The notes: a model not told the origin generated them from the sequence alone. A DNA stretch of 64,000 bases from Escherichia coli (GCF_044324875.1 NZ_CP172185.1); one strand, 5' to 3'. Positions 3,933-54,963 are shown, counted from the stretch's first letter. Program-made: numbers and translations.

Positions 3933-5666
3933 ATGCATTCCACAGAAGTCCAGGCTAAACCTCTTTTTAGCTGGAAAGCCCTGGGTTGGGCACTGCTCTA
4001 CTTTTGGTTTTTCTCTACTCTGCTACAGGCCATTATTTACATCAGTGGTTATAGTGGCACTAATGGCATTCGCGACTCGCTGTTATTCAGTTCGCTGTGG
4101 TTGATCCCGGTATTCCTCTTTCCGAAGCGGATTAAAATTATTGCCGCAGTAATCGGCGTGGTGCTATGGGCGGCCTCTCTGGCGGCGCTGTGCTACTACG
4201 TCATCTACGGTCAGGAGTTCTCGCAGAGCGTTCTGTTTGTGATGTTTGAAACCAACACCAACGAAGCCAGCGAGTATTTAAGCCAGTATTTCAGCCTGAA
4301 AATTGTGCTTATCGCGCTGGCCTATACGGCGGTGGCAGTTCTGCTGTGGACACGCCTGCGCCCGGTCTATATTCCAAAGCCGTGGCGTTATGTTGTCTCT
4401 TTTGCCCTGCTTTATGGCTTGATTCTGCATCCGATCGCCATGAATACGTTTATCAAGAACAAGCCGTTTGAGAAAACGTTGGATAACCTGGCATCGCGTA
4501 TGGAGCCTGCCGCACCGTGGCAATTCCTGACCGGCTATTATCAGTATCGTCAGCAACTAAACTCGCTAACAAAGCTACTGAATGAAAATAATGCCTTGCC
4601 GCCGCTGGCTAATTTCAAAGATGAATCGGGTAACGAACCGCGCACCTTAGTGCTGGTAATTGGCGAATCGACCCAGCGTGGACGCATGAGTCTGTACGGT
4701 TATCCGCGTGAAACCACGCCGGAGCTGGATGCACTGCATAAAACCGATCCGAATCTGACCGTGTTTAATAACGTGGTGACGTCTCGTCCGTACACCATTG
4801 AAATCCTGCAACAGGCGCTGACCTTTGCCAATGAAAAGAACCCGGACCTGTACCTGACACAGCCGTCGCTGATGAACATGATGAAACAGGCGGGTTATAA
4901 AACCTTCTGGATCACCAACCAGCAGACGATGACCGCCCGCAATACCATGCTGACGGTATTTTCGCGCCAGACCGACAAGCAGTACTACATGAACCAGCAA
5001 CGTACGCAGAGTGCGCGTGAATACGACACCAACGTGCTGAAGCCGTTCCAGGAAGTGCTGAATGACCCTGCGCCGAAGAAACTGATCATCGTTCATCTGC
5101 TGGGTACGCATATCAAATACAAATACCGCTACCCGGAAAATCAGGGCAAGTTTGATGGCAATACCGATCATGTTCCGCCGGGATTAAACGCGGAAGAGCT
5201 GGAGTCATATAACGATTATGACAACGCTAACCTGTATAACGATCATGTGGTTGCCAGCCTGATTAAAGACTTTAAAGCAGCAGACCCGAACGGTTTCCTG
5301 GTTTACTTCTCTGACCACGGTGAAGAGGTTTACGACACGCCGCCGCACAAAACTCAGGGGCGTAACGAAGACAACCCGACGCGTCATATGTACACCATTC
5401 CGTTCCTGCTGTGGACGTCGGAAAAATGGCAAGCGGCTCATCCGCGTGATTTCTCACAGGATGTTGATCGTAAATACAGCCTTGCGGAACTGATCCACAC
5501 CTGGTCAGATTTGGCGGGCTTATCTTACGACGGTTACGATCCAACCCGTTCAGTGGTGAATCCGCAGTTCAAAGAAACTACCCGCTGGATTGGTAACCCG
5601 TACAAGAAAAACGCGCTGATCGATTACGACACGCTGCCATATGGCGACCAGGTAGGTAATCAGTAA
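3933..5666 (+). CDS. eptC: Phosphoethanolamine transferase EptC (YijP)
   Basis: ORF track starts at a TTG (3888); internal ATG at 3933 gives 577 aa starting MHSTEVQAKPLFSWKALGW..., the length I recall for EptC; N-terminal TM region plus sulfatase-like C-terminal domain. Confidence 0.9.
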   Translation: MHSTEVQAKPLFSWKALGWALLYFWFFSTLLQAIIYISGYSGTNGIRDSLLFSSLWLIPVFLFPKRIKIIAAVIGVVLWAASLAALCYYVIYGQEFSQSVLFVMFETNTNEASEYLSQYFSLKIVLIALAYTAVAVLLWTRLRPVYIPKPWRYVVSFALLYGLILHPIAMNTFIKNKPFEKTLDNLASRMEPAAPWQFLTGYYQYRQQLNSLTKLLNENNALPPLANFKDESGNEPRTLVLVIGESTQRGRMSLYGYPRETTPELDALHKTDPNLTVFNNVVTSRPYTIEILQQALTFANEKNPDLYLTQPSLMNMMKQAGYKTFWITNQQTMTARNTMLTVFSRQTDKQYYMNQQRTQSAREYDTNVLKPFQEVLNDPAPKKLIIVHLLGTHIKYKYRYPENQGKFDGNTDHVPPGLNAEELESYNDYDNANLYNDHVVASLIKDFKAADPNGFLVYFSDHGEEVYDTPPHKTQGRNEDNPTRHMYTIPFLLWTSEKWQAAHPRDFSQDVDRKYSLAELIHTWSDLAGLSYDGYDPTRSVVNPQFKETTRWIGNPYKKNALIDYDTLPYGDQVGNQ

Positions 5667-5740
5667 ATGACCTTTGTATCGCGTCTGGCGCTATTTGCCG
5701 GATGCGATACTGCCGCAATGTTTACATCGAACTCCCCTCA

Positions 5741-5768
5741 GGCCACACTTTTCAGGTGGCCTTTTTTA
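5741..5768 (+). terminator. Intrinsic terminator downstream of eptC
   Basis: Hairpin ggccac(5741-5746)...gtggcc(5756-5761) followed by tttttt. Confidence 0.7.
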
Positions 5769-5814
5769 ATAATGCCAGTTACTGTTTTCCCGTCTACATA
5801 CCTAAGGGAATAAC

Positions 5815-6666
5815 ATGTATCACGACGTCAGCTATCTGCTCTCCCGCCTGATCAACGGCCCGCTGTCCCTGCGCCAGATTTACTTTGCCAGCAGTAACGG
5901 CCCGGTGCCCGATCTTGCGTATCAGGTCGATTTTCCACGGCTGGAAATTGTGCTGGAAGGTGAGTTTGTTGATACCGGTGCTGGAGCAACGTTAGTTCCC
6001 GGCGATGTGCTGTACGTTCCTGCTGGTGGCTGGAATTTTCCACAATGGCAAGCCCCCGCCACTACCTTTAGCGTGCTGTTTGGCAAACAGCAACTCGGCT
6101 TCAGCGTCGTGCAATGGGATGGCAAACAATATCAAAATCTGGCGAAGCAACACGTCGCCCGGCGCGGCCCACGCATAGGTTCTTTTCTGCTACAAACGCT
6201 CAATGAAATGCAAATGCAGCCGCAGGAGCAGCAAACGGCAAGGCTTATCGTCGCCAGCCTGCTTAGCCACTGCCGCGATTTGCTCGGCAGCCAAATCCAG
6301 ACCGCCTCACGCAGCCAGGCACTATTTGAAGCTATTCGCGATTATATCGACGAACGCTATGCCTCCGCGCTTACCCGCGAATCTGTTGCACAGGCGTTTT
6401 ATATTTCACCAAATTACCTCTCGCACCTGTTTCAAAAAACGGGGGCCATTGGTTTTAACGAATACCTGAATCACACGCGACTGGAGCACGCTAAGACGTT
6501 ATTGAAAGGCTATGACCTGAAGGTAAAAGAAGTGGCGCACGCCTGCGGCTTTGTCGACAGCAACTACTTCTGCCGTCTGTTTCGTAAAAATACCGAACGC
6601 TCACCGTCGGAATATCGTCGGCAGTACCACAGCCAACTGACAGAAAAACCGACTACTCCAGAATGA
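5815..6666 (+). CDS. yijO: AraC-family transcriptional regulator YijO
   Basis: 283-aa ORF; C-terminal AraC-type HTH (…SPNYLSHLFQKTGAIGFNEYLNHTRLEHAKTLL…); RBS aaggga at 5803-5808; position matches K-12 order. Confidence 0.88.
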   Translation: MYHDVSYLLSRLINGPLSLRQIYFASSNGPVPDLAYQVDFPRLEIVLEGEFVDTGAGATLVPGDVLYVPAGGWNFPQWQAPATTFSVLFGKQQLGFSVVQWDGKQYQNLAKQHVARRGPRIGSFLLQTLNEMQMQPQEQQTARLIVASLLSHCRDLLGSQIQTASRSQALFEAIRDYIDERYASALTRESVAQAFYISPNYLSHLFQKTGAIGFNEYLNHTRLEHAKTLLKGYDLKVKEVAHACGFVDSNYFCRLFRKNTERSPSEYRRQYHSQLTEKPTTPE

Positions 6667-6994
6667 GATGGGTTTGCTGCGGCGCAGAAAGCACTTTGCG
6701 CACCGCGCTCATCACCCGCTGCGGCTCACGCAGGAATGCGTAGATGCTGCATTGCACATAGCGGCAATGGTCAAATCGCTCAGCACCGGCAAGCTCGATA
6801 TCCGTAATTAACAGAGCAACATCCGCCCGACGGATATCCTCGTCCGCTAAACGATTCTCCGTTCCCAGCGCGCCCTGAGTTTCAATGCTGACGCCCCGCT
6901 TCTCTAACAGGCACAACTTTTCCAGCCGTTCCGCCGCCATATAAGTATGCGCCACGCCGCTTACGCAGGCGGTTACTGCCACCAGGTATGCCAT
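6653..6994 (-). CDS. frwD: PTS fructose-like EIIB component 3
   Basis: Internal ATG (rc of 6992-6994) gives 113 aa MAYLVAVTACVSGVAHTYMAAERLEK...; PTS EIIB Cys motif; ORF-track start is an upstream extension. Confidence 0.85.
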   Translation of the reverse strand: MAYLVAVTACVSGVAHTYMAAERLEKLCLLEKRGVSIETQGALGTENRLADEDIRRADVALLITDIELAGAERFDHCRYVQCSIYAFLREPQRVMSAVRKVLSAPQQTHLILE

Positions 6995-6995
6995 T

Positions 6996-7874
6996 TTAAC
7001 CTCCCACGGTAACCTGAAATCCGGCCCGCTCTGCCATTTCACGCATCGTTGCCACATCGACTGACGACGGCGCAGGCACCTCTTTCATCGACCATGTTTT
7101 CCCCAGCAGGCGGTATTTCGGTTCGCCGTACTGATGAAACGGTAACAGATGGATCTGCCTGATATTCAGCGGGATCAGCACGTCCAGCGCCTGCTGCATA
7201 TTCTCCCGGCTGAGCGTGAAACCAGGGATCAGCGGTAAACGCGGGATCACGTTGACGCCCTCACTCACCAGCAAACGCAGATTCTCCAGCACGCGTGGCA
7301 GGTTCATCTTCACCACATCCCGCGCCTGAGTCGCGTCCATAATTTTTAAATCGAACAACACTTCATCGCACAATTTCGCCAGCGGTAACAGCTTGCTAGC
7401 TGGCGCGTCTCCGGCAGTTTCAATGGCGCATGACACGCCCCACAACCGCAGCCGCTGTAAAAAACGGGTAGCAAACTCCGCCTGCATTAACACTTCGCCG
7501 CCAGAAAGCGTGACGCCGCCGCCGGACGTGCGAAAGAAAATGTCATCTTTCATCACTTCCCGTTCCAGCGCGTCAAGGCTGATATCGCGGCCAATCCGTT
7601 CAAACGCCCCGGAGGGGCATTCATCCGCATCACGCAAACATTTCGCACAGTGCAGACATTTCGCCTCTCTGCGTACCGTCTGGATTTTGCCGGAGATCGA
7701 CTCCGGATTAGCACACCATGGGCAAAGATGCGGACAGCCTTTAAAAAAGACCACCGTACGAATGCCCTCGCCGTCATTCAGTGAATAACGCTGAATGTTG
7801 AAAATGCGCGCCACATCATTGCGGCGCGTTTCCACAACGTTACAGCTGATGCGCTGTCCGGCGGATGATGTCAT
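6996..7874 (-). CDS. pflC: Pyruvate formate-lyase 2 activating enzyme (radical SAM)
   Basis: Internal ATG at 7874 gives 292 aa MTSSAGQRISCNVVETRR...; radical-SAM CxxxCxxC (CPHLCPWC); overlaps pflD 3' end by 35 nt. Confidence 0.88.
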   Translation of the reverse strand: MTSSAGQRISCNVVETRRNDVARIFNIQRYSLNDGEGIRTVVFFKGCPHLCPWCANPESISGKIQTVRREAKCLHCAKCLRDADECPSGAFERIGRDISLDALEREVMKDDIFFRTSGGGVTLSGGEVLMQAEFATRFLQRLRLWGVSCAIETAGDAPASKLLPLAKLCDEVLFDLKIMDATQARDVVKMNLPRVLENLRLLVSEGVNVIPRLPLIPGFTLSRENMQQALDVLIPLNIRQIHLLPFHQYGEPKYRLLGKTWSMKEVPAPSSVDVATMREMAERAGFQVTVGG

Positions 7875-10137
7875 CCTGGATCTCCTTCGACAATTCGACA
7901 AAGAAGGCGCTGTATCCGGCAACGCGCACCACCAGCCCGGCATAATCTTGTGGGCGCTGTTGCGCTTCCCGCAACGTGTCGGCGTTCACCACGTTAAACT
8001 GAATGTGTTGTAACTTAAGCTGGGTAAATGCCCGTAAGAAGTCGGCCAGTTTGCGTAATCCCGCTTCACCTTCCAGGGTCGCCGGAGTGAATTTCACGTT
8101 CAGCAACGTACCGTTAGACAGCAGCGTATTATCGAGCTTACTGACTGACTTCAGTACCGCCGTTGGCCCTTGTGCGTCCTGACCCAGCATAGGTGACAAG
8201 CCGCCGTCTGCCAGTTGTTCCCCGGCAAAACGACCGTCTGGCGTCGCGCCAACCACCGATCCCAACGGGACGTGAGCAGAAACGGTATACGATCCTGGCG
8301 TGAAGTAGCCGCCGCGCGGGTTCTGGTATTTTTCCACTTCTTTGCAGTAGTGGCGTAACAGTTCGGCGCTGATGTTATCCACCTCGTCGATATCGTTACC
8401 GTATTTCTCGAAGCGGTTAATTAAGCGAGCGCGGACTTTTTCGCCTTCTGGCGTTGCGAAGTTGGCTTTTAATACCGACAGCAATTCGTCAAAACTTAAA
8501 CGCTGTTGATCAAAAATCATCCCTTTCAACGCATGGAGAGAATCGCTCAGGTTGGCGATACCGATCCCCTGTACGCCGGAGAAGTTATAACGCGCGCCGC
8601 CATCGGTAATATCGCGACCTTTTTCCAGACAATCGCTGATAAAAGACGAGAGCAGCGGTACAGGTGCCCAGTCGCGATGGCCGATATCACAAATATTGCT
8701 GCCCTCTACCATCAGGGTGATGTAGTGGCTGATCTTGGCGCGGATCTGTTCCAGTAAACCTTCATAAGTCAGCGCAGCGTTACCTTCATTTTCATGCAGG
8801 CAGATTTCCATCACTTTCAGCAGGTTAAACATCGCGATGTCATGCAAGCCGTAGGTTCTGCCGGGAATAGATAATTCCACGCAGCCCACTACGGAATAGT
8901 CGCGCGCATCTTCCAGCGAAACGCCACGGTTGAGGAACGCTGGCACCACCACTTCATCGTTAAAGATTTGCGGAATACCGGTACCGAGGCGAATAGTTTC
9001 TGCGGTTTTCATCAGGAACGGCGTGTCGATCAAGGCGTTAGTGCGCACCCCCAGGTTCGGTTGCGGTAATTGCACACTTTGATAGGCGTCGAGACAGAGG
9101 AACGAAAGTACGTTCACCGCGCTACGTCCGTTCTCGGTTAACCCGCCGAGCAGTGCGGTATAGCCGGTCGGGAAACCGGCGAAATAACGCGCGCTACTGG
9201 TGGAGCGCAACAGCACGATGTCGTTGCATTTCACCCATAAAGATTCGAGCAGTTCTTTCAGGAACGCCGGATCTTCGCCCTGGGTTAATGATGCCTGATA
9301 GAACGGCAACATATACTGGTCGAAGCGCCCTAAAGACAGAGAACTGGCGTTGGATTCGTATTGCAGAATGATGTTCATGTACCAGAATAACTGGCACGCC
9401 TGCCAGAACGTCTGCGGCTTATGTTCGGCGTTATGGCGGGAGATCTCCGCAATAGTCAGCAGTTCTTCGCGACGCTGGGCATCTGTGCAGTTTGCCGCCA
9501 TCGTTTCCGCCAGTTCAGCGTAACGCAGAATGTGTTTCCGCGAGGCTTCCAGCAGTAACAGCGCTGCCTGATAAAAGTGATTCTCCGGCTGTTGCTGACA
9601 ATGTTGCTGCATCTGTGCCACCAGCTCACCCAGCCCGTGATTCAGCAGGCGCGGGTAATCAATAATAATGTGCCCCTGGCCTTTATCCGTCTGGTTGATG
9701 CTGAAAATCTGCGTGCTGGTCGCGGCTTTTACTTCATCCGTCATCTGCCCGTTAATGAAATCTTTCATCGAACGTTTTTCCCAGTACGGGAACAACTCTT
9801 CGCGGTAGATACGTTTATCTTCTTCGCTGATAGCAAAGCGGTCCTGCGGACGCGTCGGGAATTGATCCAGCTCTTTCAGCAGCCAGTAAGGGTCCATTTC
9901 CGGCGACATAATTCCGGCGCGCGGTTTCACCGTACGGTTACCGGCAATCAGTTCTTCATCACGAATCGAAATTTCAACATGTTCAAGGATATGCGCTGTT
10001 GCTTTCGCCCGGCGCAATATCACCGGTTCGCCTTCGGTTTGCCGATGGCTGGCGGTATAAAGCAGCGCCCGCTCCAGCGAGATTTCACGGGTATTGGCAA
10101 ACAGTGCAGTTTTGAGGCGAGAGATACGATTCGTCAT
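7840..10137 (-). CDS. pflD: Formate acetyltransferase 2 (glycyl-radical enzyme)
   Basis: 765-aa ORF MTNRISRLKTALFANTREISLERALLYT...; glycyl-radical motif region near C-terminus (RVAGYSAFF); ATG at 10137. Confidence 0.95.
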   Translation of the reverse strand: MTNRISRLKTALFANTREISLERALLYTASHRQTEGEPVILRRAKATAHILEHVEISIRDEELIAGNRTVKPRAGIMSPEMDPYWLLKELDQFPTRPQDRFAISEEDKRIYREELFPYWEKRSMKDFINGQMTDEVKAATSTQIFSINQTDKGQGHIIIDYPRLLNHGLGELVAQMQQHCQQQPENHFYQAALLLLEASRKHILRYAELAETMAANCTDAQRREELLTIAEISRHNAEHKPQTFWQACQLFWYMNIILQYESNASSLSLGRFDQYMLPFYQASLTQGEDPAFLKELLESLWVKCNDIVLLRSTSSARYFAGFPTGYTALLGGLTENGRSAVNVLSFLCLDAYQSVQLPQPNLGVRTNALIDTPFLMKTAETIRLGTGIPQIFNDEVVVPAFLNRGVSLEDARDYSVVGCVELSIPGRTYGLHDIAMFNLLKVMEICLHENEGNAALTYEGLLEQIRAKISHYITLMVEGSNICDIGHRDWAPVPLLSSFISDCLEKGRDITDGGARYNFSGVQGIGIANLSDSLHALKGMIFDQQRLSFDELLSVLKANFATPEGEKVRARLINRFEKYGNDIDEVDNISAELLRHYCKEVEKYQNPRGGYFTPGSYTVSAHVPLGSVVGATPDGRFAGEQLADGGLSPMLGQDAQGPTAVLKSVSKLDNTLLSNGTLLNVKFTPATLEGEAGLRKLADFLRAFTQLKLQHIQFNVVNADTLREAQQRPQDYAGLVVRVAGYSAFFVELSKEIQDDIIRRTAHQL

Positions 10138-10187
10138 GAGGAACTCCTGTGGGAAAGCGAACCCGCCCTTACGGGCGGGATAAGAAC

Positions 10188-10508
10188 TTAAGCGGTTTGT
10201 GCCAGGTGAGCTTCAATTTTGCTCATAATGGCATCAGCGCGTTTTACCGCGTCGCTGATGTTGACGCGCACGATGGTCTTGCCAGCAAAACGCTCTTCAA
10301 ACTTGATGCCGATATCTTTGGTCAGAATCACCATATCGGCGCTCGCCACGTCTTCCGCAGTCAGTTCATTTTCCAGACCAATCGAGCCCTGGGTTTCTAC
10401 TTTCACTTCCCAGCCTTTCGCTTTCGCGGCACTTTCCAGCGCCTCTGCCGCCATATAGGTATGGGCAACACCAGATGGACACGCGGTTACTGCAATAATT
10501 TTCGTCAT
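10188..10508 (-). CDS. frwB: PTS fructose-like EIIB component 2
   Basis: Internal ATG at 10508 gives 106 aa MTKIIAVTACPSGVAHTYMAAEALE...; paralogous to frwD. Confidence 0.85.
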   Translation of the reverse strand: MTKIIAVTACPSGVAHTYMAAEALESAAKAKGWEVKVETQGSIGLENELTAEDVASADMVILTKDIGIKFEERFAGKTIVRVNISDAVKRADAIMSKIEAHLAQTA

Positions 10509-10518
10509 GGCTCGTTCC

Positions 10519-11598
10519 TCAATTAATTTCAAAATCCAAATCCAGGTCGTCTTCTTTTTCATCAGCCGAAGACCCATTTTTACGCGCCAGACTTTTCAGC
10601 ACGTTCACGCAGACTGCCGTCACAACCGCCCCGACAGCCACTGCTGCGATATAACCCAACTTACCTTCAACCACCGGCAGCACAATCAGACCACCCCAGC
10701 CTGCATAGCATTGCGCACCGACCAGCGCCGCAGTTACTGCACCACAAACTGAACCGACCATGATGGAAGGAATGACACGCAGCGGATCGGCTGCGGCGAA
10801 AGGAATCGCCCCTTCAGTAACGCCAACACACCCCATCACCAGCGCCGCTTTACCGGTTTCGCGCTCTTCTGCGGAGAAATTTTTACGACCAATCAGCGTC
10901 GCCAGCCCCATCCCCAGCGGCGGAACACAAATCCCCACGGCAGCAATGGCCACCACGGTATAAACACCCTGAGCAACGCAAATCAGCATGAAGGCATAGG
11001 CCACTTTGTTAACCGGACCGCCCATATCGAACGCCAGCATCAGACCCATGATCACCGCCAGCATAACAATGCTGCCCTGCTGCATCCCCTGAAGCCACTG
11101 AGTCAGGCTGTTGGTCAATGCCCCCACAGGCTCGCCCAGCCCCCACATCATGATGCCTGCGGTAATCAGTGTGCCGACGATCGGAATGATGAAGATTGGC
11201 ATCACCGAGCGCAGAACTTTATGCACCGGAATTTTCTTCAGGTAATGCACCACGATGCCGCCAATAATCCCGGCGATCAGCGCACCAAAGAAGCCCGCAC
11301 CAAAGCTGTTGCCGACCCAGGCACCGATAGCGCACGGGGCCAGCGCAGAGCGTTCTGCAATGGAATAACCAATGTAAGCAGCGAGGAAAGGCACCATCAG
11401 CGTCAAACCTGCAACGCCGATATCAAACAGTTTTTTCAGATTCGGATCGGCTACGGCATCCGGCACTGCGCCTTTGCCATACAACATGACGGAAACCGCC
11501 AGCAAAATACCGCCCGATACCACGAAGGGAATCATGTGTGAAACGCCCGTCATTAAGTGCTGACGGGTATTTTTCAGGATCTGCACCAACTCATTCAT
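10519..11598 (-). CDS. frwC: PTS fructose-like EIIC permease
   Basis: Internal ATG at 11598 gives 359 aa MNELVQILKNTRQHLMTGVSHMIPFVVSGGILL...; polytopic membrane protein; ORF-track start is TTG 7 codons upstream. Confidence 0.88.
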   Translation of the reverse strand: MNELVQILKNTRQHLMTGVSHMIPFVVSGGILLAVSVMLYGKGAVPDAVADPNLKKLFDIGVAGLTLMVPFLAAYIGYSIAERSALAPCAIGAWVGNSFGAGFFGALIAGIIGGIVVHYLKKIPVHKVLRSVMPIFIIPIVGTLITAGIMMWGLGEPVGALTNSLTQWLQGMQQGSIVMLAVIMGLMLAFDMGGPVNKVAYAFMLICVAQGVYTVVAIAAVGICVPPLGMGLATLIGRKNFSAEERETGKAALVMGCVGVTEGAIPFAAADPLRVIPSIMVGSVCGAVTAALVGAQCYAGWGGLIVLPVVEGKLGYIAAVAVGAVVTAVCVNVLKSLARKNGSSADEKEDDLDLDFEIN

Positions 11599-11906
11599 AA
11601 GCTGCTCCCGGGCTTGCAAAAGCCCATGTCCATATTTTTGATGGAGGAAACAATAGGCAATCGCAGGCGGAGCAAACAGTGGATAAAAAGGCCATTTACT
11701 GGACTTTTGTAATATCAGTACAAAAATGCGATCCGCCTCATAACTTGCGGCAACCCGGAAGCATGCCGCAAAACGGCGTCTTGTGAGACGCGTCGCAAAT
11801 TGACGGTTACATTACATTTGTCCAGCTTTTGGCAGATTTGTCACATGGCAGGCCGTTGCCGTGCGCTCTTATCCTGTAAACAGAAAACCGTACCGGGAGA
11901 GAGGCA

Positions 11907-14408
11907 ATGGCCCTGATTGTGGAATTTATTTGTGAGCTACCTAACGGCGTACATGCGCGCCCGGCAAGCCACGTTGAAACGCTGTGTAATACTTTTTCAT
12001 CACAAATTGAGTGGCATAACCTGCGCACTGACCGCAAGGGCAACGCCAAAAGCGCCCTTGCGCTGATTGGCACCGATACGCTGGTGGGCGATAACTGCCA
12101 GTTACTGATTTCCGGGGCCGACGAACAGGAAGCGCACCAGCGTTTAAGCCAATGGCTGCGCGATGAATTCCCCCACTGCGACGCACCGCTGGCGGAAGTA
12201 AAATCTGACGAACTGGAACCACTGCCGGTTTCACTGACCAATCTGAATCCGCGAATTATCCGCGCCCGCACCGTGTGCAGCGGTAGCGCAGGTGGCATTC
12301 TGACGCCGATCTCTTCTTTAGATCTCAATGCGCTGGGTAATCTTCCTGCTGCCAAAGGCGTTGACGCCGAGCAATCCGCGCTGGAAAACGGCCTGACACT
12401 GGTGATGAAAAACATTGAATTTCGTCTGCTGGATAGCGACGGTGCTACCAGCGCGATACTGGAAGCTCACCGATCCCTGGCTGGCGATACTTCTTTACGT
12501 CAGCACTTACTGGCAGGCGTCAGCGAGGGATTAAGCTGTGCCGAAGCGATTGTCGCCAGTGCACACCACTTCTGCGAAGAGTTCGCCCGTTCCAGCAGCA
12601 GCTACCTGCAAGAACGTGCCCTGGACGTACGCGACGTCTGCTTCCAGTTACTCCAGCAAATCTACGGTGAGCAACGCTTCCCGGCACCGGGCAAACTGAC
12701 GCAGCCCGCCATTTGTATGGCTGATGAACTGACCCCCAGCCAGTTCCTCGAACTGGATAAAAATCACCTCAAAGGATTGTTGCTCAAAAGCGGCGGCACC
12801 ACCTCACATACGGTGATCCTTGCCCGTTCGTTCAACATTCCGACGCTGGTTGGTGTGGATATTGATGCCCTCACTCCGTGGCAGCATCAAACGATTTATA
12901 TCGACGGCAACGCTGGGGCGATTGTGGTTGAGCCAGGGGAAGCCGTAGCTCGTTATTATCAGCAGGAAGCCCGCGTACAGGACGCCCTGCGTGAGCAACA
13001 GCGTGTCTGGCTGACCCAACAAGCCCGTACCGCTGACGGTATCCGCATTGAAATTGCCGCTAACATCGCTCACTCCGTGGAAGCGCAGGCCGCATTCGGC
13101 AATGGTGCGGAAGGCGTTGGTTTATTCCGCACTGAAATGCTCTATATGGATCGCACCAGTGCACCGGGCGAAAGCGAGCTGTACAACATTTTTTGCCAGG
13201 CGCTGGAGTCCGCCAACGGACGCAGCATTATTGTGCGCACTATGGATATTGGCGGTGACAAACCCGTTGATTATCTGAACATTCCCGCAGAGGCAAACCC
13301 GTTCCTCGGTTATCGCGCCGTGCGTATTTATGAAGAGTACGCGTCGTTATTTACCACACAACTACGGTCGATTCTCCGTGCCTCCGCTCACGGCAGCCTG
13401 AAAATCATGATCCCGATGATCTCCTCAATGGAAGAGATCTTATGGGTAAAAGAAAAACTGGCAGAAGCCAAACAGCAACTACGTAACGAACACATTCCGT
13501 TTGATGAGAAGATCCAGCTCGGCATTATGCTGGAAGTGCCGTCGGTGATGTTCATCATCGATCAATGCTGCGAAGAGATTGATTTCTTTAGTATCGGTAG
13601 TAATGACCTGACGCAATATCTGCTGGCAGTGGATCGCGATAACGCTAAGGTTACTCGTCACTATAACAGCCTGAATCCAGCATTCTTGCGGGCGCTCGAT
13701 TACGCCGTGCAGGCGGTGCATCGCCAGGGCAAATGGATTGGTCTGTGCGGTGAACTGGGAGCGAAAGGTTCCGTGCTGCCATTGCTGGTCGGTTTAGGGC
13801 TGGATGAGCTGAGCATGAGCGCACCGTCAATTCCGGCGGCGAAAGCGCGGATGGCGCAACTTGATAGCCGTGAGTGCCGCCAGTTGCTCAACCAGGCAAT
13901 GGCCTGCCGTACTTCGCTGGAAGTGGAACACCTGCTGGCGCAATTCCGCATGACCCAACAAGACGCACCGCTGGTCACCGCCGAGTGCATCACACTGGAA
14001 AGCGACTGGCGCAGCAAAGAAGAAGTGCTCAAAGGCATGACCGATAACCTGCTGCTGGCGGGCCGCTGCCGCTATCCGCGTAAACTGGAAGCCGACTTGT
14101 GGGCGCGCGAGGCCGTTTTCTCTACCGGTCTGGGCTTTAGTTTTGCCATTCCCCACAGCAAATCGGAACATATTGAGCAATCCACCATCAGCGTAGCGCG
14201 TCTGCAAGCGCCGGTGCGCTGGGGCGATGATGAAGCGCAATTCATCATTATGTTAACGCTGAACAAACACGCTGCGGGCGATCAGCACATGCGCATTTTC
14301 TCGCGCCTCGCTCGCCGCATCATGCACGAAGAATTCCGTAACGCGCTGGTTAACGCCGCCTCTGCCGACGCTATCGCCAGCCTGCTGCAACATGAACTGG
14401 AACTGTAA
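11907..14408 (+). CDS. ptsA: Multiphosphoryl transfer protein PtsA/FrwA (HPr-EI-EIIA fusion)
   Basis: 833-aa ORF, ATG 11907 with RBS gggagagagg; enzyme I-like core (…[21 protein letters not shown]…) flanked by HPr-like and EIIA-like ends. Confidence 0.93.
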
Positions 14409-14419
14409 AAGGAAACATC

Positions 14420-15082
14420 ATGGAACTGTATCTGGACACCGCTAACGTCGCAGAAGTCGAACGTCTGGCACGCATATTCCCGATTGCCGGGGTGACAACT
14501 AACCCGAGCATTATCGCTGCCAGCAAGGAGTCCATATGGGAAGTGCTACCGCGTCTGCAAAAAGCGATTGGTGATGAGGGCATTCTGTTTGCTCAGACCA
14601 TGAGCCGCGACGCGCAGGGGATGGTGGAAGAAGCGAAGCGCCTGCGCGACGCCATTCCGGGTATTGTGGTGAAAATCCCGGTGACTTCCGAAGGTCTGGC
14701 AGCAATTAAAATACTGAAAAAAGAGGGTATTACTACACTTGGCACCGCTGTATATAGCGCCGCACAAGGGTTATTAGCCGCACTGGCAGGGGCAAAATAC
14801 GTTGCTCCGTATGTTAACCGCGTAGATGCCCAGGGCGGAGACGGCATTCGTACGGTTCAGGAGCTGCAAGCGCTGTTAGAAATGCACGCACCAGAAAGCA
14901 TGGTGCTGGCGGCCAGCTTTAAAACGCCGCGTCAGGCGCTGGACTGTTTACTGGCAGGATGTGAATCCATCACCCTGCCCTTAGATGTAGCGCAACAAAT
15001 GCTCAACACCCCTGCGGTAGAGTCAGCTATAGAGAAGTTCGAACACGACTGGAATGCCGCATTTGGCACTACTCATCTCTAA
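14420..15082 (+). CDS. fsaB: Fructose-6-phosphate aldolase 2
   Basis: 220-aa [40 protein letters not shown]...; transaldolase-like fold family. Confidence 0.93.
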
Positions 15083-15092
15083 AGGAGCAATT

Positions 15093-16196
15093 ATGGACCG
15101 TATTATTCAATCACCGGGTAAATACATCCAGGGCGCTGATGTGATTAATCGTCTGGGCGAATACCTGAAGCCGCTGGCAGAACGCTGGTTAGTGGTGGGT
15201 GACAAATTTGTTTTAGGTTTTGCTCAATCCACTGTCGAGAAAAGCTTTAAAGATGCTGGACTGGTAGTAGAAATTGCGCCGTTTGGCGGTGAATGTTCGC
15301 AAAATGAGATCGACCGTCTGCGTGGCATCGCGGAGACTGCGCAGTGTGGCGCAATTCTCGGTATCGGTGGCGGAAAAACTCTCGATACTGCCAAAGCACT
15401 GGCACATTTCATGGGTGTTCCGGTAGCGATCGCACCGACTATCGCCTCTACCGACGCACCGTGCAGCGCATTGTCTGTTATCTACACCGATGATGGTGAA
15501 TTTGACCGCTATCTGATGTTGCCAAATAACCCGAATATGGTCATTGTCGACACCAAAATCGTCGCTGGCGCACCTGCACGTCTGTTAGCGGCGGGTATCG
15601 GCGATGCGCTGGCAACCTGGTTTGAAGCACGCGCCTGTTCCCGTAGCGGCGCTACCACTATGGCGGGCGGCAAGTGTACCCAGGCGGCGCTGGCACTGGC
15701 AGAACTGTGCTACAACACTCTGCTGGAAGAAGGCGAAAAAGCGATGCTTGCCGCCGAACAGCATGTAGTGACTCCGGCGCTGGAGCGCGTGATTGAAGCG
15801 AACACCTATTTGAGCGGCGTTGGTTTTGAAAGCGGCGGGCTGGCGGCGGCTCACGCGGTGCATAACGGCCTGACCGCTATCCCGGACGCGCATCACTATT
15901 ACCACGGTGAAAAAGTGGCATTTGGTACGCTGACGCAGCTGGTTCTGGAAAATGCGCCGGTGGAGGAAATCGAAACCGTAGCTGCACTTAGCTATGCGGT
16001 AGGTTTGCCAATAACTCTCGCTCAACTGGATATTAAAGAAGATGTCCCGGCGAAAATGCGAATTGTGGCAGAAGCGGCATGTGCAGAAGGTGAAACCATC
16101 CACAACATGCCTGGCGGCGCGACGCCAGATCAGGTTTACGCTGCACTGCTGGTAGCCGACCAGTACGGTCAGCGTTTCCTGCAAGAGTGGGAATAA
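15093..16196 (+). CDS. gldA: Glycerol dehydrogenase
   Basis: ATG 15093 preceded by RBS aaaggag (15081-15087) gives 367 aa [26 protein letters not shown]...; ORF-track start 15054 is an extension overlapping fsaB. Confidence 0.94.
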
Positions 16197-16270
16197 CCTA
16201 CTCCAAACTCCCGGCTTGTCCGGGAGTTTGAGAGTGCAGGCAAAGTGGCTCACTCGTCACTGCGGGCATG

Positions 16271-16380
16271 TTTTTCCCCCTCGCCCTTTCAGGGAGAGGG
16301 TCGGGATGAGGGTAAATATTCGCCCCGGAGCTGGCCTGTTCCCCTCACCCTAACCCTCTCCCCAAAGGGGAGAGGGGACT
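16271..16380. repeat. GC-rich palindromic intergenic repeat, two inverted copies
   Basis: 16271-16315 (ttttccccctcgccctttcagggagagggtcgggatgagggtaaa) and 16340-16380 (cccctcaccctaaccctctccccaaaggggagagggg) in opposite orientations; same family as 726-776 and 54770-54897. Confidence 0.75.
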
Positions 16381-16526
16381 GTTCGAGCACTTTTTATACG
16401 TTATCACCCGTCTGAAACTCCCACGTTGTTCAGGAATTTTTTATCCGCTTCTGGACATTTTCTCTACAGAACAATCGTTAGCCCGGAAGGTCGAATCTGT
16501 GACTCTTATTTTCACGGACGAACCAG

Positions 16527-21649: not shown

Positions 21650-21852
21650 GAAAAGCCGAGGGGCGTCAACCGAAAAATGACCAATGATGGTGAGGAAAAA
21701 TCAGGGAAGTTGAAAAAAACTCATCTTAATTAGAGGCGATAAAAGATTTCTCTATAGAGCAATCCACCTCGCACGTTTTGACTGATATTCTGACAACACA
21801 GCGACACCTGGGCTTATTCGAAAAACAACGTCCTGCCACCGGATGGTGATGC

Positions 21853-21889
21853 TAAGGCATCTGATTCGGCCTGCGCCCTCGCGTAGGCC
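21853..21889. repeat. REP-like palindrome downstream of the nucleotidase-like gene
   Basis: gattcggcctgcgccctcgcgtaggccgaatac: 8-bp inverted arms attcggcc/ggccgaat. Confidence 0.5.
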
Positions 21890-21949
21890 GAATACTGGAT
21901 CTGCAAAATCAACTGGTAACAAACAGATGAATCAACTCAATACGTACTT

Positions 21950-23503
21950 TTACTTGATATCTTTCACGCGCATACCGTTGATCTGTTCATCCGTGATGGT
22001 GTTACCCGCTTTGAAGTAATCAACCACGGCGTGATAAACGTAATAACCGCCCGTTGTGTTACGCGCTTTCCCTTCGGTAAAGGCGGTAAAACCATCTCCA
22101 CCATCAGCAAGGAAACTCTGAGTAGCAATGTGGTAAATCGTCGCATCTTCAATGGGTTTGCCATTCAGAGTCAGTGTGATTACCCGCTGACCAACCGGTT
22201 TGCTGCTGTCGTACTTCATTTCCAGGCCTTTCGATACCTGTAAAACGCCATTACTTAAACTTGCGCCGTGTTCCATCAAACTGCGTAATTGTTTACCTGT
22301 GAGATCCATCGTCACCAGTTCATTGGGGAACGGGAAGGTACTGATGACGCCGCCCATCGTAATCGCCCCTGCGGGGATCTCATTGCGAATGCCGCCAGAG
22401 TTGGTTAACGCCAATTGGGTGTTTTTACCCGCCGCTACCAGTAAAGCATCAGCCGCCAGGTTCCCGAGGGAAGCCGATTCACCATAGGCACGTTTTAATT
22501 CAACCGGCGATTTCGCGACCGTTTGTTGCACCACTTCATCAAGCTTTTTATTCCAGCCGTCGATCACCTGTTTCGTTTGCGGATCGGGCTTCCACTCATC
22601 GGCGTAAATGGTTTTAAGCTCGAAGTTTTTCACCGTAAAATCATGCGGCTTCTCTTTGTAGTCGAGGACCAGTTTGCCCACATCAATCCCGCCGCTGTCA
22701 GTGGAGAGGATGAGCGTATTGCCGACTTTAATCGGTTCCGGCGTACCCACATGTGCATGTCCGGTGATCAAAATATCCAGCCCTTTCACCTGACTTGCCG
22801 TCTGAATATCTTTATCCAACGCGCGACGCACATCGGTCCCTCCCATACTGGACTGGCGGGCCGGAACACCTTCGTGGATCAGGGCGACGGTCAAATCAAC
22901 CTTGCCTTTGAGTTCATCGATATAACGTTGTAGCCATTTAATTTCATCACGCGCCTCAATACCCACTCGCGTTGCCGCAGATACCGTGTCATTAAAGGCA
23001 AATACACCGTGCAAACCTATAACGCCTATTTTCACACCGTCTTTTTCGATGATGGTATAGGGCTTATCCCAGAATGATTTACTGCTGTTCTGATAAAAAA
23101 CATTGCCCTGCACAATCGGGAATTTTGCCTGACTCAACTGTAATAATGTGTTGTCCCAGCCGTGGTCAAATTCATGGTTGCCTATCGTGACGGCATCAAA
23201 CGGCATAGTATTCATAATATCGATAATAGCCTTACCTTTGGTCAGGCTGCTGATATAGGGCCAGGTAAAATAGTCGCCCGCATCAAAAAACCATGTCGCT
23301 TTATTTTTTGCTTTTTCTTGCTTAACCAGCGTAGTGATATTTGCCCAGCCGCCAATATCCCGTTTACCGTCAGCGATCCACGGCACTTTATAAGGCTCGA
23401 CATGTGCATGGAGGTCGTTGGTATAAATGATGGTGACATCTTTAGCGCAAGCCCAGAATGGCAGTGTTAATGCGATACCCGCAGCAAGTATTTTAATTTT
23501 CAT
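21950..23503 (-). CDS. Secreted calcineurin-type metallophosphoesterase / 5'-nucleotidase-family protein (UshA/CpdB-like)
   Basis: 517-aa ORF; N-terminal signal peptide [20 protein letters not shown]; metallophosphatase motifs in order DxH (NDLHAH), GD (DAGDYF), GNHE (GNHEFD), GH.H (ITGHAHV); C-terminal half consistent with 5'-nucleotidase substrate domain; RBS aaaggga upstream. Confidence 0.8.
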
Positions 23504-23635
23504 AAACAGTCCCTTTCAGTGAGATAAAGGATTGCTACATTACGTTCTGAAAGAGTTATTTATGTGAGAGTAATCACATCCACAGGGGAGCGTTGCCGGA
23601 CAAAATCAACGACCATGTGAAATCGTTGGTGATAT

Positions 23636-37542: not shown

Positions 37543-38028
37543 ATGAAATACGATACTTCCGAGCTTTGTGACATCTATCAAGAAGATGTTAACGTCGTGG
37601 AACCGCTGTTCTCCAACTTTGGCGGACGGGCGTCGTTTGGCGGACAAATAATCACGGTAAAATGTTTCGAGGACAACGGGTTGCTGTACGATCTGCTCGA
37701 ACAGAATGGCCGTGGTCGTGTTCTTGTCGTCGATGGCGGTGGTTCTGTTCGTCGCGCACTGGTCGATGCTGAACTGGCGCGTCTGGCAGTACAAAATGAA
37801 TGGGAAGGTCTGGTCATTTACGGCGCGGTGCGTCAGGTAGATGACCTGGAAGAGTTGGATATCGGCATCCAGGCAATGGCGGCAATTCCGGTTGGTGCCG
37901 CTGGCGAAGGCATTGGCGAAAGTGATGTCCGCGTCAACTTTGGCGGTGTCACTTTCTTCTCTGGCGACCATCTCTATGCCGACAATACCGGGATTATTCT
38001 TTCTGAAGATCCGTTGGATATTGAATAA
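37543..38028 (+). CDS. rraA: Regulator of RNase E activity A (RraA/MenG)
   Basis: 161-aa [49 protein letters not shown]... Confidence 0.95.
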
Positions 38029-38045
38029 GTATCTGCCATGCGTTA

Positions 38046-38071
38046 AAAGGGGAATTAACTTCCCCTTTTTT
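38046..38071 (+). terminator. Intrinsic terminator after rraA
   Basis: Hairpin aaggggaa-ttaac-ttcccctt followed by tttttt (38066-38071). Confidence 0.8.
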
Positions 38072-38075
38072 ATAC

Positions 38076-38762
38076 ATGGACGTATTCGTGCAGAATATTA
38101 TTCTTTTATTTATATATTTATTACTTATAGCCGTTAACCATTTCCGCTACAAATTTCTTTTATCTGGCAACGCGGGTGAAATGATTTTATATTTTGCTAA
38201 CGTATTTTTTAACCCACTTGCCGTATCATTTATTATCGCCACAATCATCTGTATAACGATAAAAAAAAGAAGCAGCCGTAGCTTTATTCGCGGCACTTGT
38301 TGGTTAATGGGATTATTTCTTATCTATAGCAGCTATACGGTGTGGGAACGACACAGCATATGGGATTATACTTTCCCGGGGCCAGGTATCACCGTCACGG
38401 TTCCGAGCAAACAGTGGGTTGCCAATATAGTAAAACAAGGACCAACCCTGGTGACTCGGGATGCCCATGCTATTTTAGCTATTGTTGCCTTCTCACAAAA
38501 TGAACTCGGTGTGCATTCAATCGAGGAACTTACCGCGACTCAAAACGGAACTGCAGAAATGCATGTTTGTGATGTTCAGGGATTTGCCTGCGCTTATCAG
38601 GAAGGAGTGCAAACAATGAGTGATGGCAAAGTAAGACATGCTATTTTCATGACTCTACTGGATAACACTAATTTGATACAACTGGTCGCAGCCATCGACC
38701 CAGATTATTTGGACGAATATCAAGAAGAAGTAATGAAAATGATGCTTTCTGCCCGTCCATGA
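38076..38762 (+). CDS. Hypothetical membrane protein, paralogue A (3 predicted N-terminal TM helices + ~140-aa C-terminal domain)
   Basis: 228-aa ORF; hydrophobic segments ~6-22, 36-60, 72-88; paralogous to the next ORF (LLSGNAGEM/LLSGDPGMV, FIRGTCWLMGLFLI/FTRGCCWVLGVLLL, ITVTVPSKQW/ISVTVPNRHW, MKMMLSARP/MEIMLSAKN); no obvious SD before ATG 38076. Confidence 0.75.
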   Translation: MDVFVQNIILLFIYLLLIAVNHFRYKFLLSGNAGEMILYFANVFFNPLAVSFIIATIICITIKKRSSRSFIRGTCWLMGLFLIYSSYTVWERHSIWDYTFPGPGITVTVPSKQWVANIVKQGPTLVTRDAHAILAIVAFSQNELGVHSIEELTATQNGTAEMHVCDVQGFACAYQEGVQTMSDGKVRHAIFMTLLDNTNLIQLVAAIDPDYLDEYQEEVMKMMLSARP

Positions 38763-38794
38763 TCTGATGTGCATATTAATAATAAGGGATTGAT

Positions 38795-39511
38795 ATGAGA
38801 TACGTTATCTTATTAATACTATGGATAATAACTGCTTTTCTTAGTCATCTTCAGCACAGTAACCTACTGTCTGGAGATCCTGGCATGGTTGGCGAGTATA
38901 TCGGTTCAGTATTTCTGGGGCCGTTATTACTTCCCGTGCTTGTGTCAGGTATTCTGTGCGCATTCACTAAAAAAACGCGTAACTTCGCCAGTTTTACTCG
39001 CGGGTGCTGCTGGGTATTGGGAGTCCTGCTTTTATCCAACGTCGGCAATACGTTTCGTCTGTTCACCCCGTGGCACTATACGTTTGAGAAGGCAGCTATT
39101 TCCGTGACTGTCCCAAACCGACACTGGAATACGGTTTCTATTAGTACTGATAAAACCATTGATATAAGAAGTGAAGATAATAGCGTCTTTATTTCTGCTT
39201 TCCGCCTGCCCGCAGGACGTAGCGCCGATGACTCGCTGGAAGAGTTAAAGAAGATGCAGCGAGACAATCTCAAGGATCAATACAATGAAGAAACCTTCCA
39301 GTTTCATGATTGTAATGCCAAACATTTCACCTGTAAGTATCAGGATGTGTTGATAAATTTTGATGGTCAGCAGAAAAGAACCATCAGTGTTTATCTTGAA
39401 GACACCCCCAGGGCTGTGGGGATCATTGCATTAATGGAGCCAGATACGGCAGATAAATATCGCCAACAGGCGATGGAGATTATGTTGTCTGCTAAAAATA
39501 CAGTGAAGTAA
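38795..39511 (+). CDS. Hypothetical membrane protein, paralogue B
   Basis: 238-aa ORF; RBS taaggga (38783-38789) 6 nt before ATG; same architecture as paralogue A; conserved Cys pair (HDCNAKHFTCKYQ vs HVCDVQGFACAYQ). Confidence 0.8.
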   Translation: MRYVILLILWIITAFLSHLQHSNLLSGDPGMVGEYIGSVFLGPLLLPVLVSGILCAFTKKTRNFASFTRGCCWVLGVLLLSNVGNTFRLFTPWHYTFEKAAISVTVPNRHWNTVSISTDKTIDIRSEDNSVFISAFRLPAGRSADDSLEELKKMQRDNLKDQYNEETFQFHDCNAKHFTCKYQDVLINFDGQQKRTISVYLEDTPRAVGIIALMEPDTADKYRQQAMEIMLSAKNTVK

Positions 39512-39536
39512 AAAATAAGGCGCCTTGCGGCGCCTC
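39510..39536 (-). terminator. Intrinsic terminator of zapB (abuts stop codon of paralogue B)
   Basis: Plus strand aaaaaat + aaggcgcc-ttgc-ggcgcct (39517-39535); on minus strand this is a hairpin followed by a U-run. Confidence 0.7.
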
Positions 39537-39549
39537 TGCGTGGAAGAGA

Positions 39550-39843
<294 letters not shown>

Positions 39844-49638: not shown

Positions 49639-49740
49639 GATGCCGGATGCGGCGCGAACGCCTTATCCGGCCTACAAAAGTTTGCAAATTCAATAAATTG
49701 CAGAATTCATGTAGGCCTGATAAGCGAAGCGCATCAGGCA
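49639..49740. repeat. BIME: two REP elements in inverted orientation
   Basis: gatgccggatgcggcgcgaacgccttatccggcctac (49639-49675) and gtaggcctgataagcgaagcgcatcaggca (49711-49740). Confidence 0.8.
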
Positions 49741-54708: not shown

Positions 54709-54769
54709 ACTCGGCGCAGAGCCGTCCCCTTCGGGGTGAAGGCAACAGGTCAGCACTGTGCGAACTGAT

Positions 54770-54897
54770 ACCCTCACCCCGGCCCTCTCCCTGAAAGGGC
54801 GAGGGGGAAAAACGTAGCCCTGTTCAGCAACGGAGCTGAGCACCGCTCCGGACAGTCCCCTCGCCCCTCTGGGGAGAGGGTTAGGGTGAGGGGAAAA
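54770..54897. repeat. GC-rich palindromic intergenic repeat, two copies
   Basis: 54770-54812 (ccctcaccccggccctctccctgaaagggcgagggggaaaaa) and 54853-54897 (cagtcccctcgcccctctggggagagggttagggtgaggggaaaaa, near-identical to 731-776). Confidence 0.75.
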
Positions 54898-54963
54898 ATT
54901 CAGCACAATGCAAACGGCACTGCTCTCACCGGAAACCATGCCAGATTTCGTATTAAGGCAGAC

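Follow-up and report, generated by a model that had tools for sequence, protein, structure and literature searches.

The 64,000-nt window analyzed here, one strand of the Escherichia coli genome GCF_044324875.1 (NZ_CP172185.1), contains a locus in which a glycyl-radical enzyme gene and its activase gene (pflD and pflC) are embedded among the frw genes of a fructose-like phosphotransferase system (PTS). The genes run on the minus strand in the order frwC-frwB-pflD-pflC-frwD and diverge from ptsA (frwA), an order that a first-pass annotation of this DNA had described and that was borne out by the six-frame list of open reading frames (ORFs). This list placed minus-strand ORFs at 6653..7057, 6996..7943, 7840..10137, 10188..10577, and 10519..11619, and a plus-strand ORF at 11907..14408. 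With the starts taken as the K-12-equivalent ATGs (Table 1), the five-gene span extends from 6653 to 11598, which is the interval that had been proposed earlier. The junctions were read directly from the sequence. The ATG of pflC lies at 7874 and the last base of the pflD TAA at 7840, so that 35 nt are shared by the two genes, and the TAA of pflC ends at 6996, 1 nt away from the frwD ATG at 6994. Both values had been reported in the first-pass annotation and were found again in the K-12 annotation. No internal stops were present in frwD, pflC, pflD, frwB, frwC, and ptsA, and their lengths were equal to those of MG1655; the earlier remarks that the frames are intact and that this is the known, not a novel, K-12 arrangement were therefore correct. 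Chance is of no concern in these assignments because each protein passes its NCBIfam equivalog cutoff and the region is nearly universal in E. coli genomes. The locus is the ordinary, intact, and already known E. coli frwCB-pflDC-frwD cluster.

Table 1. Features of the frw-pfl locus and the adjoining genes; positions are counted from the first nucleotide of the window.
Feature	Position	Strand	Description
yijO	5815..6666	+	283 aa; AraC-family regulator, C-terminal helix-turn-helix detected; protein identical to K-12 YijO
frwD	6653-6994	−	113 aa; second fructose-type PTS IIB
pflC	6996-7874	−	292 aa; radical-SAM activating enzyme for PflD
pflD/pflC overlap	7840..7874	−	35 nt, read from sequence
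pflD	7840-10137	−	765 aa; glycyl-radical enzyme, dehydratase/lyase class
GC-rich hairpin, frwB-pflD spacer	10162..10179	−	from terminator-like scan
frwB	10188-10508	−	106 aa; fructose-type PTS IIB
frwC	10519-11598	−	359 aa; fructose-family PTS IIC permease
Divergent ptsA/frwC control region	11599..11906		308 nt
ptsA (frwA)	11907-14408	+	833 aa; fused HPr-like/Enzyme I/EIIA(Fru) multiphosphoryl transfer protein
fsaB	14420..15082	+	220 aa; fructose-6-phosphate aldolase 2; next after ptsA
gldA	15093..16196	+	367 aa; L-1,2-propanediol/glycerol dehydrogenase

PflD was assigned to its orthologue family by NF007437 (1723.8 bits; cutoff 1109) and to the PFL2 or glycerol-dehydratase-type subfamily by TIGR01774 (1346 bits; cutoff 678.2). 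It contained both domains of the glycyl radical superfamily, namely PF02901 at residues 1-626 (703.9 bits) and PF01228 at residues 645-747 (108.1 bits). The glycyl-radical motif RVAGY occupies residues 738-742, with Gly741 as the radical residue, and the Cys loop VVGCVE includes the thiyl residue Cys419 and Glu421 in a C-x-E arrangement (GCVE). The loops around C419, E421, and G741 were invariant across eight orthologues and could be aligned with those of PflB and YbiW. A search of the PDB with PflD returned the crystal structure 8yjo, entitled “Probable dehydratase PflD,” as the best match (99% identity over 765 aa), followed by structures of YbiW and of other glycyl-radical dehydratases and lyases.

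The first-pass annotation had called this enzyme PFL-like, which holds for the fold but not in the sense of a pyruvate formate-lyase. PflD as a second pyruvate or 2-oxobutyrate formate-lyase is suggested by the product names in RefSeq and NF007437 and by the shared PFL-like fold and glycine-radical domain. However, PflD scored 120.9 bits against the PflB equivalog model TIGR01255, for which the cutoff is 994.2, and its identity to PflB is only 24%. The G-C-V-E sequence of its Cys loop includes one Cys, with Gly-Cys in place of the essential Cys-Cys pair of PflB, and its closest solved relatives are dehydratases and lyases. Because the Cys-Cys pair is missing and the score against the PflB model is far under the cutoff, PflD is not a pyruvate formate-lyase, and a formate-lyase function can be regarded as effectively refuted.

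The product of pflC was recognized as the activase by NF007483 (628.1 bits; cutoff 326) and TIGR02494 (261.4 bits; cutoff 174.35), and it contains the Pfam domains Radical_SAM (PF04055) and Fer4_12 as well as the CX3CX2C motif at C47/C51/C54. The Shine-Dalgarno sequence of pflC (GAAGGAG, 7882-7888) is located 7 nt before the ATG, and both lie inside the 3' end of pflD. They were invariant in K-12, Salmonella, Enterobacter, and Edwardsiella, while many synonymous sites of pflD nearby varied, which supports the annotated start and translational coupling. The 35-nt overlap and the 1-nt gap would couple the translation of PflD, its activase PflC, and the second IIB protein, FrwD. The GTG at codon 21 was considered as another possible start of pflC; it would abolish the overlap and bring the N-terminus into line with those of YbiY and PflA. 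This reading was rejected because the codon is not conserved (ACC, GTA, or GTC in the other three genera), in contrast to the invariant GAAGGAG-N7-ATG upstream of it. The N-terminal tail of PflC (approximately 20 residues) is poorly conserved and is partly encoded by the overlap with pflD. PflC also has a short Cys-rich insert (residues 61-90, with C73/C76/C79/C86); its paralogue YbiY has a far longer one.

The transport proteins of the locus likewise matched their family models, including FrwC (NF007787, 719.6 bits; cutoff 426), FrwB (NF007783, 210.4 bits; cutoff 135), and FrwD (NF007747, 216.7 bits; cutoff 153). Both IIB proteins carry the N-terminal active-site Cys at position 10, which in FrwD is part of a VTAC motif; FrwD also matched PDB entry 4tn5. 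PtsA scored 479.9 bits against the Enzyme I domain model TIGR01417 (cutoff 341.7), and its C-terminus scored 96.2 against the fructose EIIA domain model, slightly under the cutoff of 103.5. Its candidate phospho-histidines are H16 (GVHARPA), H301 (GGTTSH), and H750 (AIPH), and the order of the Pfam domains was confirmed in orthologues. All parts of a fructose-family PTS were found, comprising EIIC, IIB with its Cys, and Enzyme I, HPr, and EIIA with their His residues, and the locus is predicted to encode a self-contained phosphorelay and permease. Downstream of ptsA, FsaB (NF009296, 383 bits; cutoff 306) passed both the subfamily and the equivalog cutoffs, and GldA was assigned by the equivalog NF047954 (749 bits; cutoff 700).

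The 6.5-kb region matched 5425 of the 5426 complete E. coli genomes at 95-99% identity, and coverage was at least 80% in 5389 of them. Among these approximately 5400 matches, two were located on records labeled as plasmids, and one genome had two copies. The best 120 PflD homologues listed came from Enterobacterales only, with at least 89% identity (89-93% for the orthologues); a broader taxonomic distribution has been claimed in the literature. One PflD-like entry, P0001 (908 aa), matched 69% of the query at 97% identity and appears to be a fusion or a product of misassembly. Three neighborhoods outside E. coli were examined, from Salmonella, Enterobacter, and Edwardsiella tarda. Salmonella and Enterobacter retained the E. 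coli context (katG ... ppc) and gldA. The Edwardsiella tarda module is flanked by uvrC/pgsA and the ato genes, lacks gldA, and has the order fsa-ptsA <> frwC-frwB-pflD-pflC-frwD <> AraC-type gene. The 35-nt pflD/pflC overlap, the convergent 14-nt frwD/yijO overlap, and an fsa gene adjoining ptsA were kept in all three genera.

The convergent overlap of yijO and frwD occupies 6653-6666, and the pair has been listed as a convergent excludon (PMC12288877). In 2022, YijO was still listed among the regulators of unknown function. Because yijO travels with the module, with the 14-nt overlap present in four genera and with a different context in Edwardsiella, YijO is the obvious candidate regulator. 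A four-genus alignment of the divergent ptsA-frwC region revealed three conserved elements: a block at 11806-11849 with two copies of GACAAAT 20 nt apart, a CRP-like TGTGA-N6-TCGCA at 11782-11797 that abuts a TTGACG hexamer, and a 67-nt block at 11673-11739 with TTTTGTA-N7-TACAAAA. A simple scan of 11599-11906 detected no consensus sigma-70 promoter. The CRP-like and FNR-half-like sites are eye-level leads because the promoter scan was empty and the terminator-like matches were no commoner than in shuffled sequence. The block with the two GACAAAT copies and the 67-nt block are accounted for by no known regulator, and it is conceivable, as a tentative suggestion, that YijO is the dedicated regulator of the module and that excludon-type mutual interference occurs between yijO and the frw-pfl transcript.

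A second element of possible regulatory interest lies in the 50-nt spacer between frwB and pflD, where the hairpin CCCGCCC-GTAA-GGGCGGG (GNRA loop) is followed by TTCGCTTT. The spacer folds at −18.2 kcal/mol (z = −2.7). A G-U pair preserves the stem in K-12, and the hairpin has functional-looking counterparts in other genera. The equivalent one in Enterobacter precedes a T6 run, and the spacers of Salmonella and Edwardsiella are longer and palindromic. The hairpin may attenuate transcription or stabilize the upstream transporter message. A scan of 5600-16200 at the Rfam gathering threshold detected no RNA family.

The genes differed from those of K-12 at 1-4% of nucleotides, and the ratios of nonsynonymous to synonymous substitution (dN/dS, Nei-Gojobori) were low throughout, with values of 0.017 for frwC, 0 for frwB, 0.051 for pflD, 0.065 for pflC, 0.087 for frwD, 0.041 for ptsA, 0.053 for fsaB, and 0.033 for gldA. 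Purifying selection is clear, unlike the decay of a dispensable “cryptic” remnant. Relative to K-12, there were nine amino acid substitutions in PflD, three in PflC, two in FrwC, two in FrwD (W33R and E75D), nine in PtsA, and one in FsaB. None of the nine in PflD affected C419, E421, or G741, and the protein was identical to PflD of strain AST215. FrwB was identical to its K-12 counterpart despite 13 synonymous differences, and YijO was likewise identical. At the frwC/frwB junction (10509-10521), a 4-nt deletion in the ATTAATTAATTGA tract left the FrwC protein unaltered but replaced its TAA stop by TGA and shortened the spacer to 10 nt, compared with 14 nt in K-12; the GAGGAA Shine-Dalgarno sequence of frwB was kept. 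Of 5389 genomes, no fewer than 8 and no more than 32 match this junction exactly, which makes it a minority allele.

The apparently private substitution in this strain is W33R in FrwD, a non-conservative change (TGG to CGG at 6896-6898). W33 was invariant in FrwD of K-12, Salmonella, Enterobacter, and Edwardsiella. No identical frwD was present among the complete E. coli genomes, and CGG at codon 33 in its context occurred in 0 of 4399 comparable complete E. coli genomes. The change could equally be a sequencing error. It was also considered that W33 might be a variable position, as distant solved IIB homologues differ there, and this was dropped since the residue is invariant in the orthologue alignment.

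The module might be cryptic or impaired in this strain: it could be silent under every natural condition, or FrwD W33R or the change at the frwC-frwB junction could have disabled it. The historical label of the operon as “cryptic,” the empty promoter scan, and the private, non-conservative W33R at an invariant residue would all be compatible with this. On the other hand, no frameshift or stop was found, and dN/dS values of 0-0.09 indicate long-term purifying selection. The 4-nt deletion leaves FrwC and the Shine-Dalgarno sequence of frwB unaffected and the same junction exists in other strains, while the remaining IIB protein, FrwB, does not differ from its K-12 counterpart. A cryptic or impaired module is very improbable, and the copy in this strain looks functional as judged from its sequence, FrwD W33R apart.

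In a comparison with strain AST215, 8 nt differed in the 3.8 kb from frwD to frwB, as against 129 nt in the 5.3 kb from frwC to gldA. This mosaic pattern implies that a recombination breakpoint lies close to the junction of frwB and frwC.

The substrate of this enzyme and its linkage to a fructose-like PTS had been regarded as poorly defined in the first-pass annotation, a view that is outdated. According to a 2025 review (PMC12441222) that summarizes Ma et al. (J Am Chem Soc 2024;146:26187; pmid 39283600), a PTS phosphorylates 1,5-anhydroglucitol and 1,5-anhydromannitol, PflD cleaves 1,5-anhydromannitol-6-phosphate (AM6P) and YbiW its glucitol epimer to 1-deoxyfructose-6-phosphate, and both reactions are glycyl-radical reactions that are sensitive to oxygen. 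As far as this summary goes, the substrate question and the reason for the PTS linkage have been answered in the literature, with the enzymology published in 2024 and thus already known. The locus is most probably (approximately 85%) the E. coli “anhydroglycolysis” locus for the anaerobic utilization of 1,5-anhydro-D-mannitol (AM), present here as an intact and ordinary allele. The gene identities, the intact frames, the catalytic motifs, the purifying selection, and the conservation of the complete module were established by the present analysis. In terms of substrate, product, and the involvement of a PTS, this reading follows the literature as summarized in the review. The conversion of AM6P by PflD has been reported for the K-12 protein and would extend to the present one by orthology. 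FrwCBD and PtsA would be the PTS for 1,5-anhydromannitol, as suggested by gene linkage together with the mention of “a PTS” in the literature.

The pathway would proceed in four steps. PtsA would relay the phosphate of phosphoenolpyruvate through its Enzyme I, HPr-like, and EIIA(Fru) domains to Cys10 of FrwB and/or FrwD, and FrwC would import AM as AM6P. PflC would then use the [4Fe-4S] cluster bound by C47/C51/C54 and S-adenosylmethionine to generate the radical on Gly741 of PflD. This radical would be passed to Cys419, and with Glu421 as the catalytic base, C-O cleavage would open the ring and yield 1-deoxyfructose-6-phosphate. Finally, FsaB would split this product into glyceraldehyde-3-phosphate and hydroxyacetone, and GldA would convert hydroxyacetone to 1,2-propanediol. 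Such a cleavage by FsaA/FsaB, as well as the reduction of hydroxyacetone by GldA, has reportedly been described for E. coli. The location of fsaB and gldA directly after ptsA, and that of ybiW-ybiY beside fsaA in K-12, fits these downstream steps. We infer that the last step is carried out by the adjacent fsaB and gldA and that the allele of this strain behaves as that of K-12.

Several points weigh against this assignment. The substrate and product are known here through a secondary summary of Ma et al. (2024), which does not name Frw as the PTS involved, and 1,5-anhydromannitol is called “non-physiological” in mammals in the same review (PMC12441222). The FsaB and GldA steps draw in part on gene adjacency. 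To these may be added the private W33R at an orthologue-invariant residue of FrwD and the lack of a consensus sigma-70 promoter in the divergent region. Alternatively, the Frw PTS and PflD may act on another natural sugar, such as fructose, another ketose, or another anhydro- or deoxy-hexitol phosphate, with AM being just a surrogate that works in vitro and in laboratory growth tests. This would agree with the PTS components scoring best against fructose-family models, with a paper in which PtsA is cited as belonging to a putative PTS for the anaerobic catabolism of fructose (PMC6643234), and with the non-physiological status of 1,5-anhydromannitol in mammals. However, PflD is reported in the review to cleave AM6P specifically, and YbiW the glucitol epimer (PMC12441222), and the linkage with an Fsa-type aldolase in four genera fits a 1-deoxy-ketose-phosphate product. 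Another natural substrate is therefore unlikely, and utilization of 1,5-anhydro-D-mannitol is preferred. “Formate C-acetyltransferase” and “cryptic fructose-like PTS” are misleading product names, and an anhydromannitol-phosphate ring-opening pathway should be understood in their place. As a core and well-annotated E. coli operon, the locus matters little beyond such bookkeeping.

Other differences from K-12 were found elsewhere in the window. A 3-kb accessory insert at 21719-24728, between metF and metL, is absent from K-12 and was present in 1845 of 5426 genomes; it encodes a 517-aa metallophosphatase/5'-nucleotidase (21950-23503, minus strand) and a 376-aa Cys-rich protein without a Pfam match (23636-24766, plus strand). 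A second accessory insert of 1.5 kb (38027-39553), between rraA and zapB, is likewise absent from K-12 and was present in 679 of 5426 genomes. It contains tandem paralogues of 228 and 238 aa (30% identity, E = 3e-35) that are annotated as hypothetical, have no Pfam match, and have hydrophobic N-terminal halves as judged by eye. Two intergenic segments gave no megablast alignment to K-12, that between cpxA and yiiM (54712-54963; approximately 250 nt vs. approximately 100 nt in K-12) and that between gldA and yijF (16232-16410; 179 nt vs. 123 nt). The window contained only three Rfam matches at gathering level, an L31 ribosomal-protein leader, a ClpQY (hslVU) promoter element, and the ES036/CssrF small RNA, at 29867-29919, 34531-34588, and 49677-49718, all of which are expected at K-12 positions. 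The ES036/CssrF RNA is syntenic with K-12 cpxQ.

Among the closest known systems is that of E. coli K-12 MG1655 (b3945-b3954; gldA-fsaB-ptsA <> frwC-frwB-pflD-pflC-frwD <> yijO), which has the same gene order, orientation, and lengths and shares the 35-nt overlap, the 1-nt gap, and the 14-nt frwD/yijO overlap; it differs in that frwC ends in TAA followed by a 14-nt spacer, instead of TGA followed by 10 nt. PflB/PflA and PflD/PflC both belong to the glycyl-radical superfamily, with the RVxGY motif and a radical-SAM activase, but PflC contains an extra Cys-rich insert that is lacking in PflA. The B12-independent glycerol dehydratase, choline trimethylamine-lyase, and other PFL2-class enzymes (PDB 1r8w, 5fau) share the fold, TIGR01774, and the C-x-E motif with PflD, and these enzymes, like PflD, act by radical elimination of a C-O or C-N bond. 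In contrast, PflD is under all of their equivalog cutoffs, and its reaction involves a cyclic sugar phosphate and ring opening without the removal of water or an amine.

The YbiW-YbiY-FsaA system of E. coli (b0823-b0825) represents the 1,5-anhydroglucitol-6-phosphate branch of the same pathway. YbiW is 39% identical to PflD, shares the G-C-x-E Cys loop and the RVAGYSAFF Gly loop, and has its own activase and an adjoining Fsa aldolase. Its product is reported in the review to be the same as that of PflD, 1-deoxyfructose-6-phosphate, whereas its substrate is the other C2 epimer (PMC12441222). YbiY differs from PflC in having a much longer Cys-rich insert and in lacking the N-terminal tail of approximately 20 residues. 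Furthermore, ybiW-ybiY has no adjacent PTS genes, and its activase gene precedes the enzyme gene, the two being 5 nt apart rather than overlapping.

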